Source of the DNA: Podarcis liolepis
Lineage: Eukaryota
Reading direction: 5' to 3' (one strand)
NCBI GenBank assembly: GCA_965112155.1
Contig: OZ218104.1
Length of the DNA: 64,000 nucleotides
A program made the translations under genes and the position numbers. Shown here piece after piece: positions 1,476-64,000 of this stretch (position 1 is its first letter; each line of letters starts with the position of its first letter). The notes below the pieces were generated by a model. That model saw only the letters and a list, made by a program, of their open reading frames with translations. It was not told the DNA's origin and did not search any database.

Positions 1476-14669
<13,194 letters not shown>

Positions 14670-48392: not shown

Positions 48393-49310
48393 CTAGCTTC
48401 CCCTGTAGGTGGTGTAGGAATAGGGGCTGAGCAGCAAGGGGATGTGCACTTTTTCTTCCTCTGTGATGGTGAAGACAATCTAAACAGAGAGACAAGAGGA
48501 TGCATAAAGACAAGGGAGGGGGGAATAGCAGGAGGTTGGTAGTGCTCTTTGGTTTGAGATCCTTTCTTCGCTGCACTGGGCCTAGCCCATGAGAAGACAT
48601 TTGTCAGGGGCCCAAATGCCTGGTCCGGAGCACCCCTAGTGCCCAGTCCTCGCACACTTCTGGCTTTGTGCTCTTTCAGGGATGTCCCATGCACAACATC
48701 TAGCTCTCCTACCAACCACCTGGGCCTCTTCCTGCAGGTTTCTGAGGGACTTCACAGCGTGCAGCCTTCATAATGTGAAGTTTATGCTGATTTCTCCCAT
48801 ATTCCAACGTTGTGCTTCTCCTGCCAGGAAGTACATCCCTCAAAGGGCAGTGAGTGGTGGTCCCTGCCATCATCAGTCCTCCCTATGTTGGAAGGAGCCT
48901 CCCCCCCCTTCCAGGTGTGAGTTTCATCTGGGAACCAAACTTACTTCCACATAAGGGTAGAAGCTGCTGTATCCTTGTTGCTCCCAGTACTCCCTCGTCT
49001 CAAAGCGCAGCTTATAGGTGCCAGGTTTCAGCTCCCTGGGCATCGGGCTGTTTCTGTCCAAGCGCCCATCAGGGTTTGTCTTGCTGGAACGGAATAAATG
49101 AGGCTGAAACTGCAACGGCCCCAGCCCTACCGAGGGAGGGAGATTGTCTCGCTTCATCCCCTCCTACCTCCTCATGAGCTCTGCCCACGGACGTTGGGGG
49201 TCCTCCAGCTTAGAGAAGTGCATGGCCAGGCCTTGGGCAGGGAGGCCGGTGAGCACGTTCAGTGCGTGGACAGTCAGGAAAGCGTGGTGGACCTCATCGG
49301 AACTAGCCAC
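48393..49310 (-). CDS. URAH: 5-hydroxyisourate hydrolase (transthyretin-related) coding exons
   Basis: [47 protein letters not shown] / [39 protein letters not shown] / [28 protein letters not shown]; the HIUase C-terminal YRGS signature is present; position next to GAS8 matches the mammalian URAH/URAHP locus. Confidence 0.93.
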
Positions 49311-52300
49311 CTGGGATTCAGAACGGAGAGCCGGGTGGAGCAAAAGCCTCTGTATGAGTTCCTCCCCCTCCCAGTTTCCTAGGTCCATCGATTCCCAAAG
49401 GAAGATGTCCTTGCCACCTTCAGCAGCAGGCCCTTATTTTCCAAGCTCTTTCTTGCTGCCCTCAGCAGTTTTTCCTGTTTTTAAATGTTTGCTTTTTCTC
49501 CCAGGTGCTGTGTGCACGGGAGCTTTCTGTGAAGTGTTGTGGTTGTGGAGAGAGAGGGAGGACCCCACCCCACCCACTTCTCACCCATCCACCAGCTGTG
49601 TGTTCAAATACAAACTCTGCTGGCTCCTGGGTGAGAGGTTTTGTTGGGGGGGGGGTTAAAGACAAGATGCCCTCGGCAGACCCTGCTTGCTTGCTTGCTG
49701 CTGTCCACATTGCCCATTCATTTGCCCAAATTGTAGCCCTGCAGCTTGACATAGTGCCTGCCACTGTTTGTACAGAGAGGGCAGGTGAGCAAGTAATGAA
49801 GGTGCAGAGGAGGTTCAGGGGCAGTGAAGGTCAGCAGTGGTCCCCACTGGCTGTGTCAGGATGGGCCTGGGCAGGTGCCTTACAACGCCAGCCTCTTGAG
49901 AGAAGCCCTGCCTGACAAGTGCGTTCCTCTGCTCTTAAGCACGGCAGAGCAGTACTCCTGGGTTTCAAACAGAGGTCCTTCCTAGCCCTATCTGGAGATG
50001 TTGGGGATGAACCTAAGAACACTGAGTTATGACCCCTCTCCACCCAGAAGGTGGGACTGAACAGTGGCAGCTCTCCTTCCTGCTCCATGTATTATTTCAC
50101 TGCCTTCTTAAACATTTGATCCCTGGCCACAGAGTTCCTTTACTTTTGGCCCATGCCAGGAAACTCCCCAAGACAATCAAGAGTGTGGCATTCAAGCTTC
50201 TTGTTTTTCTTGAGCTGCCAGAAATATAGATTCCCACCCCCTTGCCAAGTTTCCCAATGAAACACCAAAGCAGGAAGGCTTTCCCTTCTCTTGGGCTGAG
50301 CCCACCCACCATCCTAGGATCTCTCACCACCTGGGGTCTCCCTCCTCCGTCCCTCTGTGGTAGTTGGTTTCTCTCATCCATTCTGGGGCATTTCTGATGC
50401 AGCCCCTTCTAACTCCACTTCCTTCTTGCCTTCCACTGGCAGGCTGCCTGCCTGTCATGACTCAGCAGAAAGTCTTAACCCTTTTGGTGCCACGAGGGCA
50501 GGCTCAACCGGGTGCCCCCTGAAAACATGAGAAAGGGGCCCAATTCATTTCAGGGCAAGGGGGGAGGGTTCCATCTCCATCTCTACTCAGCCTAATCTGT
50601 AAAATATGCATTTGAAGTTCTTGGGACTTCTCACTGGAGTAAAATGCAGCAAGCATTTTGTGGGAGAATAGTCAATACTGTCATGCCTCAGCAAGAGCAA
50701 AAATGAAGATATAGGAGCAGTCACATGGTTACCCGGGAGTATTTGTGAGTTCCCAGTCCTTACTTGGATCACTGCTGTTGCTGTAGTGCTAAGACCTTCT
50801 CCTAAGCAGTCTGTAGCCTGCAGGATCAGAGTGTATTGGGGGGTTACCTGTAAACAAATAATTCCATTAGCATTTGGGCAAAGGGGATCAAAGCACCACA
50901 TGGCAAAGCAGTGTTGTATAAGATCCTGAGAGCCCCACTGGCCAAGTAACTTGAGGAAACTTTAAACTCACTAGGGTACTTCCAGATACAGCAAACTGAA
51001 ATGGGACACAGCTGTTATTCTAGACCAGGCACAGGCAAACTCGGCCCTCCAGATGTTTTGGGACTACAGTTCCCATCATCCCTGACCACTGGTCCTGCTA
51101 GCTAGGGATCATGGGAGTTGTAGACCAAAAACATCTGGAGGGCCAAGTTTGCCTATGCCTGTGGTAGACCACCCTTAATATTAGGAAAATGTGAAAAGAA
51201 AATGCTTAATTCTTGCAAACCATACCATTAAAGCACATGACTTCCCCCAAAGGATTTGGGCAAATGTAGTTTGCCCCTCACAGAGCTACAATTCCCAGCA
51301 CCCTTGACAAACTGCAGTTCCTAGGATTCTTTGGAGGAAGCCATGTGCTTTAAATGTGTACAGCTTATGTCCACTTCATCTTCTGTAGGGCAGCCCTCCA
51401 GATATTGGAAGGCGGCAGTCATGCTGTTCATCTGCTCCAGACTCAAAGCCTTCCCTCTTCTCTTTCAGAAATCCCTTGCAAGCCCCTCCCCATCCTGCTT
51501 GGTCCCCCCCCCCCCAGCTAGCCTCTAATCCACCAGTGCCTTATGGCCCAGTGTTTCCACTAGGAGTAAAGCACAGCAGCAGAGCCAAGGGTTGCCTCAA
51601 AGGGGAAATTTAGCATCATTAATCATGCCCTCTCCCTACACAGCCAAGACCCAGCCACTTACCGTTCTGTCAAGTCCTGGTTTGTTCAAGCTGATGACCC
51701 CTGTTTTATTATCGATGGCAAACATTTGGCTCTGTGGCTTTGTGGGGGTCTGGATAGCGAGGGAGTAGGTGATTACCCCATTGTAGGAATTCACAGCATC
51801 ATCCATGTCAGTGGCTGATACTTGTGTCACAAAGGTACCTGGGTGCGTGTGCCACAAAAGTCCAAAGTTCAGCTTCTGAAGTGCATCACACACATACCCG
51901 CAACATAGCCAGATCATCCCAGCTTGGAGGTCAAATTGACTCTGCCCCAGACAGCTCCAAAATTACCTCTTAGCCTCTGCAAACTGTGCAGCAGCTGGGT
52001 GCGATCTGCACTGCCTTTATGCCAGTCCGCAAGTTATGGTGGGCTCAGTAGTGACTGCCCAGGCCATACAGGTAGAAAGAAGCACAGTTAGGGGCCTGGG
52101 GTTTGCACACAATATTATACCCCCTCCCCCTGTGGGTTCTCCTTCCATAAAGAATGGGCAAAGGATATGGGCATTCAGAGGCAAATATTAGGGGTTTCCA
52201 TACAGTCAGTTCGTTCATGCATGTGCAACCAGACAGACAGACACGTACCTGGTGGGGCTCCTTCTGCTACGGAACCATGGAAGATGCTCTGGGTAAAACG

Positions 52301-54553
52301 GGGCTTGTTGTCATTCTGATCAAGCACCTTGATGACGATCTCTGTGCGGTTCCCCACAGGCTGCCCAGTTGCACTTACAGCGTGAAGAAAGAGCTGCAGA
52401 GCAAGCAGGGTAGCAATTGAGACACTCCCCAAAGCTGCCTCTCACCCTCCCAGACACCTTCCCACAAGAGTGTAGAGCTGCCCTTCTCTTCACACCGAGA
52501 GCACCCAGGAATTTACATTAGGGGCTAAAAAGTATTTAGATACTGTATGCTGAGAATTCAAAAATGAAACTAAGCTGAACTTTCTCCTCCTTCCCATAAA
52601 TAATGGTTGCTAATACTATTGCTTCCCGGGGATTCCCCAAAAGCTGACATAAAGCAGCAGCAAACATGTGATTTCCACTCTTTCCCTGCCCCATAACACG
52701 TAGCAGCCTTCCTCAACCTGGTGCTCTCCAGCAGTTTTGAACTGCGAGTCCCATCAGCTCCAGCCAGCACAGCTATATGATGCTTGGGCTGATGGCAGCA
52801 GTAGTCCAAAGGATCTGGAAGGCACCAGGTTGGCAAAGGCAGTTTTAAGAGGTGCTGGGAGGTTCCAGGGTGGCAGAAGCTAGCACAAAGGGACTTACAA
52901 TGTATTTGTCTTTGGTCTCTCTGTCCAATGGCATGGTCACCATCAGCCAGCCTGTCTCTCTTTCAAGGATGAAGATGCCTTGAGGAGGTCTGTCTGCACC
53001 AGTCCCAGTGACACTGTAGAAAGTCATGCCATCTTTACCTACCTGGTAGCAAATGAACGTGTCAAAACTGAGAAGGTCTGTTTTCTTGTTGCCTCCCTCT
53101 ATGCCTCCCTCAGAGGTAGAACACAGAGAGGGATTCTGAGCAGGTTCATAGGAGGAAAAGAAGTCCTCCAAGCATAGTGGTTCTGAGCTGTTCAAGGCAC
53201 ATGAAGAGAAAGAGGCAGTTGCCCTCTCTGTCTATACCTGCAGCAGACGCTTGGGGTAGGGACCGATGCCATTCTCCATGACCAATATTGGAGGCAGAAG
53301 TTGCAAATCCCTTTTCTGCCTCTTCAGATCAAGTCTGGATTCTGGAAAGGTCAGCACTTCTGCCCAAGCAAATAGGAATGAGACCTGCAAGGGGGAAAGA
53401 GAGTTGCATTATTTTTTTAAAAAAACCCTCATTCAGAGCCCAATCCCATGGCATCTTCTATGTGAAGACAAGTTTGGCACTCCTTAAGATTTGTAGGGAT
53501 CTCAGGACAGGACAGTGCTGGACCTCAGAATTCCATCCTGGAACATGTGAAGGAAGACACGTCCTGGAATCTGGACACACCTCTATGTCAAGAGTATCTT
53601 CCTTCTATCTTAAATGTCAGTATTGGGTTTGCATGCTTGTTATTTACCTGAAGTCCTTTCACTTCATCTATGGACCTGCCACAGGTAGCAACCAGTCTGT
53701 TTTGCAGCCTCTATTGAGCAGTAGTCAAGGGTAGAGCTGATAAAGGGGAGATGGGCCAAGAGGCCTTGCCACGGCTCCCACACCCATGGCCAACATCTTG
53801 TTGACCCCTTGGGCTAGCCTTATTTGTGTTATCTGATCCCTCTCCAAGGCTAGATGCTTTGCAGCCCATGGAAGATTCAAGGTCCCTGTTTACAGTTTAA
53901 AGGTTGGTGCTCCCTAGTGGTTGTTTTTAAAGGAAATGCATGTTTGCTGATTCAACATTAGTTTGGAACATTGGCAACTGCTCTTATCTTCTCGAAACCT
54001 ATTTGCTTTGAACAACTATGCTGCCAGTAGAGTACAGTGTAGAGAGACACAAGCCCAATATTATGAAACCTTCCTCAGCCCAGTAACATTCCCATGCTCA
54101 CTCGGTGGTCACATCTCCCCCACACTCTGTTCATGCTCCTCTTCATCTTTATCCTCACACCCCAGCTCTTCCACAAGGCCATGGCAACACAGCTGGGGGA
54201 CAGCACCTGTACTTTGCATGCAGGAATTCCCAGATTCAAACCCAGCCGCTGCCATCCTGAAGGATTTCTGGTTTCAGCAGCACAGCAAAATCACTGCCTG
54301 GAGCCTTGGGGAATTGCTACTAATAAACACTAGTTGGACGAAGAGCCTGGCCTGGTGTGATAAAGTTGGTTCATGTGTTGGTACCTCTTCTGCACCTACA
54401 AAACACTTAACCCAGCCCCTCCACCATTAATGCCAAGAAGATCCTTCTACAACACCAAAGATACTTGCCCCTCTTCGCTTGCTCTTTGGAGGACAATCCT
54501 ACCTGAGAGTGAAGAACCAGGAAGAGCAGGAGGCTGACCCTAAAGAAGCACAT
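48393..54553 (-). CDS. Predicted chimeric secreted protein: cadherin signal peptide + mini-propeptide + EC1-EC2 fused to 5-hydroxyisourate hydrolase (371 aa, 9 exons)
   Basis: Exons (minus) 54553-54503, 53384-53238, 53042-52899, 52393-52249, 51838-51663, 50847-50764, 49310-49168, 49083-48945, 48479-48393; all GT-AG, phases 0,0,0,1,0,0,2,0; 1116 nt with no internal stop. The junction 50764->49310 (caa|gtaagg ... cccag|gtggct) is inferred, not observed in RNA. Confidence 0.72.
50764..54553 (-). CDS. Truncated type I (CDH1-like) cadherin module: signal peptide, short propeptide, EC1, EC2
   Basis: [17 protein letters not shown] | [49 protein letters not shown] | [36 protein letters not shown].. 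| [22 protein letters not shown].. | [18 protein letters not shown] | [28 protein letters not shown]; the 145-nt and 176-nt exons match CDH1 exons 6 and 7; HAV motif present; no EC3-5, TM or cytoplasmic exons seen downstream. Confidence 0.88.
51026..51161. mobile_element. hAT-type palindromic MITE
   Basis: TIRs caggcacaggcaaact / agtttgcctatgcctg, internal inverted repeat, imperfect 8-bp TSD ttctagac/tggtagac. Confidence 0.75.
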
Positions 54554-57479: not shown

Positions 57480-58400
57480 TAATTATTTTTTTTGTAATTT
57501 CCAGTTATATACATTTCAATAGTTTTACAGGCATTTTAACATTTTAACATTTCAAAACTCGACTTCCTCTTTCTATGGTTCCTTAAATTTCTATTTATTA
57601 TTTCCTGCATATTCTGATTCTTTTATTCATCTGCTTGAATTATTTACTCTTATGAAGCTGCAGGTCATTACAATAATCCTGCCAATGTCCTTATTTGTAT
57701 GCAATTTATTTGTACATATTCAGTAAACCATTTCCATTCTTTTATAAAAAGTTTGTTGTCTTGATTTCTTATTTTTACAGTAAGTTTTGCCATTTCTGCA
57801 TAGCCCATGAGTTTTTGTATCCAGTCGTCTTTCGTTGGGACGTCTTCTTTCCATTTTTGGGCTAATAACATTCTTGCCGCTGTAATCGCATACATAAATA
57901 AATTTCTATACTGTTTAGGTAGTTCGACCCCTATAATTCCCAGAAGGAAAGCTTCTGTTTTTATTTTATTTTTACAAATGTTATTTTAAACATCTTTTTC
58001 AATTCATTATATATCATTTCCCAGCAAGCTTTAACCAGGACCACCACATATGATAGAAAGTACCTTCTTTCTCTTTGCATTTCCAACACTTATTTGATTT
58101 TGATTTATACATTTTTGCCAGTTTACTCAGTGTTAGATACTTGCTATATAACATTTTCATATAGTTTTCTCTGAAACCATAGCATGCTGTAAATTTTATA
58201 TGTGTGTTCCACAATTGTTCCCATGCTTCCATATCTATATTATAACCAATATCTATTGCCCAATGTATCATTGAAGATTTTACTTGCTCCTCCTTTGTTT
58301 CCCAGTCCAATAATAACTTATACATTTCAGACAGCACTTTAACATTACATTCCAACAGATCTCTCTCCATTTGTGATATCTGTTCCCCAAACCCTTGTTT
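57480..58400 (-). mobile_element. L1-clade LINE ORF2 C-terminal fragment and 3' UTR
   Basis: KCWKCKEKEGTFYHMWW (CCHC-type knuckle) and ITAARMLLAQKWK; AT-rich, frameshifted. Confidence 0.8.
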
Positions 58401-59527
58401 CTTATCTTTCTACTATTCCTAGGAACATTAAACAAGAAAAGACAAAGTATGTCAAAGAGTTTTTCTCTCAGTCTGCTCTTCCTCAGAAGGTCTGCTGGGC
58501 CTTGGAGTCTCCTGCGATAACCTAGTATCTCTATGTATGGGTGGGGGGTGTTGGTTTTTGTTTTATGGATCAAATTCCAATGGCAAAGCATATTAATTGT
58601 ATTTCCCCTCCTTACAACAACAACAACAACAGTATTTAATTAATTAATTCGATTTCTTGACCGTCCTTTACCACAAGGCTCCAGGTTGCCTTGCAACAAC
58701 AAAACATACAATTACAAAACAAACAGAACAGTTCCCTACATAAAACAATGCACATTTAAAAAACAACAACACAATTCCATGTTTAAAAATAGTTCCAGTA
58801 GAGATGTAGACTGGGATAAACACCCCCACTTAAAAGGTTTATACTACCTTAACCTCCCTAGAGAAATAGGTGAGATATAAATTCAATAAGTTTTTGGTGT
58901 TTTGGTGTTTTTTTTTAAATTACCCCCCCCCCGTACTGTCCTTTGGAGCCCAATTGCTCTCCAAGATGGGAAGCAGATGGCTTGGCTGCGCAAAGACTTG
59001 CCACAGACCTCACTCCTTCAGAACATATCACGGAGGCTGAAAATGCACTTGTGATAAAAGAAGGAGATGGGGGCAGTGAGTGACCCCACTCGCTATTCAC
59101 CATGCATGATACCAGGAGGGGCGAAGAGGGTTTGGCTTTGCACAAATGAAATTGCAGTTGCAGGTCTGCCTGATCCATTTACCTGTTAATGCCATTATGT
59201 GGAAGCAGTTCGTTCCCTTATTTAGCCCTCAGCGACTTAGGCTCCAGTATCTGAAACACAGCCACCTTATATTTGCACCCTCTTGGACATTAAGATTGGC
59301 AGGGGGGGCCCTCTTGGTAGTTCCACCACCCACCCAGTTCTCTATGGCAGCCCCAAAGCTGTGAAAATCCCTCCCCACCTGGCACCACCTTTATGCAGCT
59401 TTCCTCCTGTACTGAAGATGCAGCTCACTGGCCAAGCTACCGGTTGAGGATACAAGTTTTAGGACCCACCTTAGCTCTTGAGCGCAGTTGCTTTAACTTA
59501 TTTTAAGTTGTTCTAACCCTCCTGGAA

Positions 59528-62800: not shown

Positions 62801-63329
62801 CTTTTCTGACTGTTGTGAAGCTGTCCACAGGTACCTTCAAACAGGAATGAGAACTCAGGGTCTTAGCTTAAATCTTTATGGAAGCTCAAACCCCAGCGCC
62901 TCTCTGCTGCAGACGCTTTCCAGCGTCTTCTGGAATATTTCGCTGTCTCCCAAATTGCCACAAAGTCCTTCCAGGATCTTCTACCACTCGGGCAATGATG
63001 GTCCCTGCACTGGGGGCTCCTTCACTGGTGCTCTACATCCAGGCCCTTGCAAATCTTAGCTCCCACAACCTTGGAGAGCTCGTGCCTTGGGGTCCGGGGC
63101 TCCTAGCGGGAGAAGCCTTGAGGAAGGGATGGCCAGGATCGAGCCCCAAGGAGAGTTGCAACAACGTGGGGGGACGGACGGAACGAGACTCAAAGGCGTG
63201 GGACTCAAAAGTGGGAGCGAGAAACCAAAGATAGATTTGGACAATCCCTTTTTGAGGATATCACTGTAAAAGTTTTATTTCCTTCTTTGGGTACTTTTTA
63301 TTTTGACAAATGCAGCCTCCAGCTGAACC

Positions 63330-63817
63330 CTCGTTAAAAATGCCGAGAGCTAAAATCGCGTTTAGCGCTGTAGGGAGGTGAAAGCAATTTGGAAGCGGGT
63401 GCTGAATCAAGAGGGAGGCTCCCCCTGCCAGAAAAGCGCCCCCCGCGTAACCGAAACACAGCCGTCGACACCAAGTTTCAGGTGTGTGTGGGGGGGGAGA
63501 GGTCCGCCCCCTCCCCTTGCAGCGATGGAGCCGGTCTCGCCCCCTGCCCGCCTTTGCAAGACCCGGGCGAGCGGGGAGGGGCCGGGGCGGTGGCAGCGGG
63601 AGCCCCGCCCGCGGAGCCTCACCTGGCGCGGCGGCTTTAAAGGCGCCGGGCAGGCCGGGCGGAGCCCCGCAGTGGTAGAAGCAGGCGAAGCAGGCGGGCG
63701 ACGCGAGGGGGCCTCCTTCAGCCCAGGCAGCTCCAGGCGACGCAACGCGGGACGCGCCCGGAGCTCCGACGAGGTTTCCCTTTGCCGACGGCGGCGCTTT
63801 CGCTTCTCGTCGCGGCG
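63330..63817 (+). promoter_or_regulatory. CpG island promoter/5' UTR of the CDH3-like gene
   Basis: CpG-rich; GC boxes, E-box CACCTG at 63620-63625, TATA-like tttaaa at about 63636-63641. Confidence 0.65.
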
Positions 63818-63868
63818 ATGGGGCTCCCGCGGAGCTGCCTGCGGGCCCTCTTGTTTCTCCTCCTCGAG
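63818..63868 (+). CDS. CDH3: Exon 1 (signal peptide) of a type I cadherin, probably P/B-cadherin; the gene continues beyond the window
   Basis: MGLPRSCLRALLFLLLE followed by a consensus donor gag|gtgagt (phase 0) within a CpG island; resembles human CDH3 exon 1 MGLPRGPLASLLLLQ. Confidence 0.65.
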
Positions 63869-64000
63869 GTGAGTACCTAACTAAGCGGGTCCCGAAGGAC
63901 GGTGTCGGTAAACAGCAGATCCCGGGGAAGGAGAGCGGAGGGGCGCATCAGTGCCCTGGGCGAGATGTTGTTCCTCGAGGGGAGGGGGGCACAGGGGCAC

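Follow-up and report, generated by a model that had tools for sequence, protein, structure and literature searches.

Does the cadherin remnant that lies beside an enzyme gene in a lizard genome stop where it does by chance, or has it become part of that gene? This question is raised by a 64,000-nucleotide stretch of Podarcis liolepis (GenBank assembly GCA_965112155.1, contig OZ218104.1; hereafter the window), in which minus-strand exons resembling the classical cadherin CDH1 precede those of URAH, which encodes 5-hydroxyisourate (HIU) hydrolase. The original prediction, made from the letters alone, had proposed that CDH1 similarity ends exactly at the close of the second extracellular cadherin (EC) domain, that a splice donor there leads into URAH, and that only the calcium site made redundant by the fusion had decayed. 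The gene proved more interesting than this single-site argument, being an expressed and widely conserved cadherin-HIU hydrolase chimera.

Gene structure and the fusion junction

The gene runs through nine minus-strand exons from 54553 to 48393, all bounded by AG and GT (GT-AG introns), which join in frame into 371 codons and a stop. Its 371-residue product consists of a predicted signal peptide, a prodomain remnant, an RQKR convertase site, cadherin EC1-EC2 and an HIU hydrolase domain ending in YRGS, and the exon phases of the cadherin part are shared with CDH1. Exon 1 (54503..54553) supplies the start codon and a hydrophobic leader with a predicted signal peptide at amino acids 1-17 (the most hydrophobic 19-residue window begins at amino acid 6); it is also found in the database proteins P0001, P0004 and P0005, and its joint to exon 2 (53384/54503) occurs in the sequencing runs X1 and X7 described below. 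Exon 2 (53238..53384) encodes the prodomain remnant, RQKR at amino acids 39-42, the start of EC1 without Trp2, and the MEN ligand motif. The core of EC1 with an intact LDRE is carried by exon 3 (52899..53042), at whose start four residues are deleted, and exon 4 (52249..52393) holds the end of EC1 with altered Trp-pocket positions 89, 90 and 92, the DQNDN linker and the start of EC2. In exon 5 (51663..51838), the EC2 core, DMDD and Asn143 are retained and Glu182 is changed to Thr (codon 51665-51663), turning LDRE into LDRT; exon 6 (50764..50847) closes EC2 with the ATD ligand and the last residues AVIQ. Exon 7 (49168..49310) is the first of URAH, with a first codon for Val that completes strand G of EC2, a short linker, the catalytic His and no Met ahead of the domain, followed by exon 8 (48945..49083) with the catalytic Asp-Gly-Arg and exon 9 (48393..48479) with His-x-Pro-x-Leu, the terminal YRGS and the stop. 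Four Podarcis database proteins have the same junction and differ from the window product at 2-10 of 371 residues, namely two in the Podarcis lilfordi protein P0001 (CAI5782301), which stood in for the window product in database searches and the structure model, and 4-10 in the other three.

The junction itself agrees closely with what had been proposed. Exon 6 (50847-50764) ends with AVIQ at CAA|GTAAGG in phase 0 (donor at 50758..50766), and the URAH exon (49310-49168) starts with GTG (Val), also in phase 0. The GTA of the donor, regarded in the prediction as the ancestral Val codon, aligns to Val211 (mature E-cadherin numbering), which is Val or Ile in 24 of 24 full-length controls. That the Val of the URAH exon restores the last EC2 strand is likewise consistent with the AlphaFold model of P0001 (mean predicted local distance difference test 76.6, predicted template modelling score 0.42), in which strand 241-251 spans the junction and includes Val250; a Foldseek search with this model ranked E-cadherin EC1-2 first. 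The donor had been called strong. Scored with a consensus matrix rather than with MaxEntScan, it reached 83, the highest of nine GT sites in 50847-50550 but only mid-range among the gene's eight coding donors (72-91), and is thus good, not outstanding. A transcript reading on from exon 6 into the intron would, as foreseen, meet a stop codon at 50587 (50587..50589). The junction is a real in-frame fusion of cadherin exons to URAH.

Splicing of the chimeric transcript

Four of the 24 listed sequencing runs (X1, X7, X11 and X23) were aligned to the window, and the joints reported are the listed ones, 13 weaker joints lying outside them. X1 consists of contigs whose RNA type was guessed by the tool, and it counts as RNA because of its eight GT-AG joints. 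All eight introns of the gene were seen in this run as GT-AG joints, including the fusion joint 49310/50764 (listed as 49308/50762, cut +2, minus strand), whose depth of 1069.5, contig depth being a poor measure of expression, equaled that of the joints within URAH. One X1 contig retained intron 6 at a depth of 28.5, so that the fusion joint was about 37 times deeper; the donor is therefore in use, and read-through contigs are far shallower. In X7, a run of low depth, five cadherin-side joints stood at 15 and a contig extended from exon 6 into the intron at 3.8, with no fusion joint among those listed. X23, a run recorded as RNA and sampled at about 12 in 100, was nearly silent, with two reads across a single URAH joint and no read across the fusion joint, and is uninformative for other tissues; among the runs listed as holders none is on record as RNA. 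In one sample (X1) the chimera predominates, and a URAH-only form exists in another (X7). The latter begins with an alternative first coding exon within intron 6 (50328..50381, minus strand; joint 49307/50325, cut +3, depth 15.9) that matches the Lacerta isoform P0011 and yields a short URAH without cadherin domains and with neither a leader nor a type 2 peroxisomal targeting signal (PTS2).

Three further features were noticed within the gene. The stretch 53612-53701 (minus strand) matches an extra 21-residue exon of the Podarcis muralis isoform X1 (P0008), with no joint among those listed. An open frame with an ATG lies immediately upstream of the URAH acceptor (49311-49388, minus strand) and is used by the UniProt model P0013, with few supporting reads. 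Intron 5 contains a high-copy repeat (51026-51313) that was very deep in all four runs.

The predicted protein and its known relatives

Pfam recognized on P0001 two cadherin stretches, representing two EC repeats, and PF00576 (117.6 bits against a cut-off of 25.3, E 5e-34), with no PF01049. The URAH part matched the zebrafish HIU hydrolase 2H1X (E 7e-24), with which it shares the domain, the active site and the terminal YRGS. All ten residues of the published active-site list, which includes His12, Arg52, His103 and YRGS (PMC13751858), are present in the window (H264, D302, R304, H355, P357, L359 and Y368-S371), and the catalytic signature His/Arg/His plus YRG[SN] is intact in 52 of 53 chimeras. 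No transmembrane segment follows the leader of the window product in hydrophobicity windows, and cleavage at the RQKR site preceding EC1 is predicted from the sequence. The leader and RQKR suggest that the product is likely an HIU hydrolase that is secreted and trimmed by convertase, and the HIUase family, whose members are homotetramers with a central active-site channel, points to a tetramer here too. A Met occurs within the 12 residues before the URAH domain in none of 24 squamate rows, therefore an upstream exon is required; a PTS2-like motif, judged by pattern, was absent from the 60 residues before the domain in all 43 rows listed.

The metazoan HIU hydrolases described so far are mostly peroxisomal, by means of PTS2, or cytosolic (PMC4324301), whereas the chimera has a hydrophobic leader and two cadherin domains in place of an N-terminal PTS2. 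Transthyretin is a secreted offshoot of the same fold, and secretion is likewise predicted here. However, transthyretin lost the active site (Y116T, I16A; PMC13751858), whereas the chimera keeps the Tyr of YRGS, has Val and not Ala at the Ile16 position, and adds cadherin domains. Fusion at the N-terminus is also tolerated by URAH in the Urah-Urad proteins (allantoin synthase) of plants, diatoms and bacteria (PMC13751858), where URAH is joined to the enzyme that follows it in the pathway and not, as in the chimera, to an extracellular adhesion module. To the type I cadherins CDH1 and CDH3 (1EDH, 2O72, 3Q2V) the EC1-EC2 part shows 56-58% identity, with the same fold, the convertase site and the EC1-EC2 Ca2+ ligands, but the chimera is without EC3-5, membrane anchor and catenin tail, and in Podarcis also without the Trp2 and Glu89/Asp90/Met92 of the strand-swap core and the Lys14 of the X-dimer. 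The same protein and junction are found in the RefSeq and UniProt models XP_028595730, XP_053255873 and CAI5782301, which bear only the automatic names 'cadherin-1-like' or 'hydroxyisourate hydrolase'. An in-frame splice between two gene families present in RNA, as in X1, makes this an expressed chimera in one of the four runs.

Calcium ligands and the adhesive interface

To compare the calcium sites, 48 chimera rows (one or a few per species, extra isoforms excluded) were aligned with 24 full-length CDH1/CDH3-type controls, using Podarcis CDH1 as the reference. Ligand positions followed the canonical motifs XEX, DRE, DXNDN, DXD and XDX (PMC6769022), with a numbering checked against the reference; lineages were scored by majority, three partial rows were excluded, and lineages were treated as independent, which the phylogeny warrants only in part. 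Ligands are intact in all 24 controls. In the window the EC1-EC2 ligands are all kept, as had been claimed, with MEN, LDRE, DQNDN, DMDD, ATD and Asn143 making up 11 of 11 positions. The claimed loss of the EC2-EC3 ligands is correct for Glu182 (LDRE to LDRT) and does not extend to Glu119 (AEG, 52264-52262) and Asp180, which are retained; the DxNDN motif has not decayed at all but is absent because the cut precedes it, that is, by truncation. Taken alone, the window (0/11 EC1-EC2 changes versus 1/3 on the EC2 side of EC2-EC3) does not depart from chance (Fisher p=0.21).

The asymmetry appeared among the relatives. Across the seven lineages without DxNDN, 1 of 77 EC1-EC2 ligands was changed versus 6 of 14 at Asp180/Glu182 (p=3e-5), or 6 of 21 with Glu119 added (p=3e-4), and leaving out any one of four lineages kept p<=1.6e-3. 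The substitutions at Asp180/Glu182 differ among Podarcis, Rhineura, Neoaves, frog and carnivores. As a same-exon control, ligands in the exon of the EC2 DRE were changed at 1 of 21 positions versus 6 of 14 (p=0.010). The eight lineages with a DxNDN-like motif had 0 of 88 changes in EC1-EC2 and 1 of 16 at Asp180/Glu182. The simple story is complicated by Glu119, which is unchanged in all 48 chimera rows, including those that have lost its Ca2+ partners, by the snakes and turtle, which share the short cut yet retain LDRE, and by the eight lineages that retain a DxNDN-like motif; carnivore models retain later EC repeats. Since a single terminal repeat can hold one calcium, as seen at the end of EC4 (PMC6769022), the half site with Glu119 may persist by holding a calcium of its own. 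The asymmetry is thus partly supported, in the aligned relatives though not in the window alone. The inference of selection on a two-domain Ca2+-linked module, as opposed to pseudogene decay, draws support from the orthologues and the RNA, not from the single E to T change of the window; decay of the EC1-EC2 ligands in relatives, which would have spoken against it, was confined to the one change in 77.

That only the redundant calcium site had decayed does not hold, since the adhesive interface has decayed too in the Podarcis chimera, as judged by aligned residues. Strand swapping involves Trp2, Lys25, Glu89, Asp90 and Met92, and the X-dimer Lys14-Asp138 (PMC9335211). At Trp2, Lys25, Glu89, Asp90, Met92 and the basic position 14 the window has Gln/Leu, a deletion, Gly, Asn, Thr and Ile, respectively; residues 25-28 of EC1 are deleted and the N-terminus is one residue longer. 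Of the 48 chimera rows, 39 retain Trp2; the remainder are the four Podarcis rows and five that are partial or do not include the exon concerned. A convertase site stands ahead of Trp2 in most rows. The original prediction had remarked neither on this loss in the lizard nor on the alternative URAH-only first exon or the spread across tetrapods.

Distribution and history of the cadherin arm

Among 82 homologues (204-650 amino acids), all of them automatic gene models, 53 carry both PF00028 and PF00576, several being isoforms. The holders comprise lacertids, an amphisbaenian, snakes, geckos, an anguid, a cordylid, a turtle, many birds, axolotl, a frog, fox and meerkat, and the Atlas contains one 73-member cluster with both domains. 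A profile search of cluster representatives surfaced no chimeras, its matches being swamped by giant cadherins.

Proteins and exon-skipping isoforms suggest that in most groups the URAH exon opens 11 residues ahead of the first strand of its domain. The donors vary, with lacertids and snakes splicing at codon 211, turtle and Neoaves after 212, and geckos, Elgaria, Hemicordylus, galliforms and axolotl at or close to the native end of the exon, with a DxNDN-like motif present; in one Zootoca isoform the donor is at the end of EC3, again at a Val position. The first residue of the URAH exon is Val only in lacertids, snakes and Rhineura. Position 211 is Val or Ile in 48 of 48 chimera rows, and therefore the last EC2 strand is always completed, by two routes. 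Conservation of the donor is accordingly divided, with Val/Ile211 always kept and the Val-for-Val splice specific to lacertids and snakes. Gln at 210 is common to turtle, lacertids and snakes and occurs in no control.

A single monophyletic cadherin arm was considered and is unsupported. When the cadherin part was placed on a midpoint-rooted tree (69 rows and 209 columns, after removal of three partial rows), the chimeras did not group together, requiring 10 changes of label, at least six of them forced by well-supported branches, and a single origin of the 'fusion' label was found in 0 of 200 bootstrap trees. In Hemicordylus, Zootoca and Eublepharis the cadherin part of the chimera shares 98%, 95% and 91% identity, respectively, with a full-length cadherin from its own or a sister genus, and the galliform chimeras group with bird CDH1. 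In contrast to these, the arm in Podarcis has 64% identity to Podarcis CDH1 (from 52 to 76% in single exons; branch 0.57), and in Neoaves the EC2 exon, 47-60% identical to CDH1, has lost DRE and retained Asp134, Asp136 and Asn143. The simplest reading would be repeated copying from the adjacent CDH1 onto an old fusion, which is favored because of the shared acceptor and of the Gln210 common to turtle, lacertids and snakes; independent fusions are possible, and the direction and order of copying are presumed. Such conversion can preserve ligands without selection, but not in the arm of Podarcis or the EC2 exons of Neoaves, with their low identity to CDH1. A literature search found no paper on conversion in the CDH3/CDH1 cluster.

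Some fish proteins were set apart. P0059 of the reedfish Erpetoichthys has tandem EC1-EC2 units followed by a 60-residue tail weakly like the first URAH/transthyretin exon; against the URAH profile the tail scored 9.0 bits (E 0.047), versus at most 3.9 in 500 shuffles, with no PF00576 match, and is a lead only. None of 14 other proteins tested alongside it matched. P0059 is possibly a fish relative of the chimera. P0098, P0300 and P0312, some of them from fish, are built of EC1-EC2 units in series, in some cases each preceded by a convertase site, and may reflect gene callers having merged tandem partial copies of CDH1. The turtle protein P0033 (Emydura) is a chimera in which the convertase site and the first strand of EC1 are doubled.

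Possible roles of the chimera

Building on the gene structure, the splice use in one run, the intact active-site and EC1-EC2 residues and the tetrapod-wide gene models, all observed directly, we consider it somewhat more probable than its negation that a leader exon and two E-cadherin-like domains are spliced onto an HIU hydrolase to give a probably secreted, convertase-trimmed tetramer with four predicted Ca2+-stiffened arms. At its origin, part of the neighboring CDH3/CDH1 cluster would have been copied in inverted orientation and attached to the phase-0 acceptor that the first URAH domain exon already possessed. Lineages that dropped EC3 would have gained new donors at the EC2 end, using codon 211 in lacertids and snakes and a site after 212 in turtle and Neoaves, in every case with Val/Ile211 and the fold retained. 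Thereafter the EC2 DRE would have become relaxed in five of these seven lineages, with the EC1-EC2 linker preserved; elsewhere the species' own CDH1 would have overwritten the arm repeatedly, restoring DxNDN. As an enzyme, the protein would remove 5-hydroxyisourate from the extracellular space. Arms bearing Trp2 would, in most species, anchor it to E-cadherin or to itself, and in Podarcis an arm without adhesive residues would be a rigid stalk adding size. Peroxidases and oxidants can make 5-hydroxyisourate from urate. Removal of 5-hydroxyisourate speeds reptile-type uricase about three-fold, and Urah is highly expressed in reptile and bird liver despite the loss of liver uricase (10.1101/2023.06.02.543418).

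Several observations weigh against this reading, and the rivals draw on them. The fusion joint is listed in only one of the four runs, and X7 has URAH joined unbroken to the alternative exon (50381-50328), with the cadherin exons on separate contigs. In X11 (organism C) the depth of URAH was 2719-3320 and that of the cadherin exons, at 90% likeness, close to zero; one contig joined 51919 to 53773 with 14 letters between, as though exons 2-4 were deleted; similarly, the Lacerta agilis models P0005 and P0010 are without most or all cadherin exons and run from the leader directly to exon 6 or to URAH. The template modelling score of the structure model is just 0.42, and some orthologue models (carnivores, Zootoca) may be read-through models. 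Without Neoaves the same-exon control lost its significance (p=0.13). The EC1-EC2 ligands (1/77) did not differ significantly from other control-invariant sites (21/321, p=0.09), and therefore the kept fold is better shown than kept Ca2+ binding. Among five Podarcis sequences the cadherin arm varied more than URAH (13/206 versus 2/122 columns, p=0.058), including non-conservative changes.

The strongest rival holds that the selected part is a secreted or expressed URAH, the cadherin exons being passengers that give it a promoter, a start codon and a leader and are tidied by CDH1 copying and the need to fold in the endoplasmic reticulum. We regard it as unlikely but serious, for the near-identity of several arms to their neighboring cadherin, the 10 label changes and the failure of a single origin in every bootstrap would follow from it, as would the leader-to-URAH forms with few or no cadherin exons (P0005, P0010, P0074 and X11), the lost adhesion residues of Podarcis, the unexceptional constancy of the EC1-EC2 ligands and the more variable cadherin part within Podarcis. 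Passengers would not readily account for 11 of 11 ligands in a Podarcis arm so far from CDH1 (chance about 0.007 at a uniform 36% change), for the Asp134, Asp136 and Asn143 of the divergent Neoaves exon, or for the two whole domains that snakes and birds keep though single-exon skips would preserve the frame. The retention of Trp2 and of the convertase site before it in most chimeras would also suit a soluble four-armed cadherin that cross-links or blocks E-cadherin junctions, with URAH as a tetramerizing scaffold or ligand carrier and catalysis incidental, and HIUase has given rise to a secreted carrier, transthyretin, once before (PMC4324301); this we judge quite improbable, as the catalytic signature is almost always intact, including the Tyr whose loss opens the transthyretin channel, and in Podarcis it is URAH that is the better conserved of the two parts, the adhesive residues having been lost. 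Least credible of all, and very improbable in our view, is the idea that transcription of a cadherin pseudogene in decay occasionally reads through into URAH and that automatic annotation has inflated the outcome. It could appeal to the separate halves in X7, to the intron-keeping contigs of X1 and X7 and to orthologues that are all predicted models, but for X1 it is largely refuted by a fusion joint as deep as those within URAH and far deeper than the unspliced contig; six cadherin-side exons are open and in frame, and the architecture recurs across tetrapods with one conserved acceptor.

A bolder extension of the favored reading is held tentatively, being possible but rather less probable than its opposite. 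In this extension an overlooked secreted cadherin-HIU hydrolase of tetrapods would dock its four arms on E-cadherin by Trp2 strand swapping and clear oxidized urate extracellularly, a second independent move of HIUase outside cells beside transthyretin; CDH1 copying would keep the arms matched, and the protein may reach bony fish. If true, this would explain why URAH was retained and is strongly expressed in birds and reptiles despite their lack of liver uricase, and if the secreted chimera is the main product, URAH works in a compartment other than the one assumed. The gene also offers a clear natural exon-shuffling series, with one acceptor, several domain-end donors, one relaxed Ca2+ motif and repeated overwriting from a neighboring gene, and in these animals the expression attributed to 'URAH' and to 'cadherin-1-like' may stem from a single transcript.

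Although RefSeq and UniProt contain the proteins with automatically assigned names, the chimera appears undescribed in print within our searches, which paired cadherin with URAH or addressed URAH gene structure and found no description, subscription papers and bioRxiv supplements being outside their scope. Keebaugh and Thomas (2010) reportedly treat URAH in birds and reptiles and might mention 5' exons. Cadherin is unmentioned in the available parts of the uricase preprint (10.1101/2023.06.02.543418) and of PMC13751858, and the chimera is not described in those of PMC4324301, PMC5138847 and PMC7667380.

Surroundings of the gene

A classical cadherin, presumably CDH3-like, begins on the plus strand, head to head with the chimera; its first exon (63818..63868) was recognized by its translation, GT donor and GC-rich flank, and a GC-rich promoter with E-box-like sites covers 63261-63947. 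Apparently coding exons of an AAA/M41 protease gene were found by Pfam at 4600-14500 on the plus strand; this gene is presumably AFG3L-like, the human gene at the matching place being a pseudogene. The gene at 36-44 kb we assume to be GAS8-like, with no Pfam match on the one exon tried. Because of these neighbors, together with the chicken URAH that adjoins DBNDD1 and CDH1 (PMC7667380) and the consecutive locus tags of URAH and cadherin in Phrynocephalus, the window probably represents the usual URAH locus, which adjoins the CDH3/CDH1 cluster back to back. Upstream of the gene, 57668-58639 contains open reading frame fragments resembling long interspersed nuclear elements.

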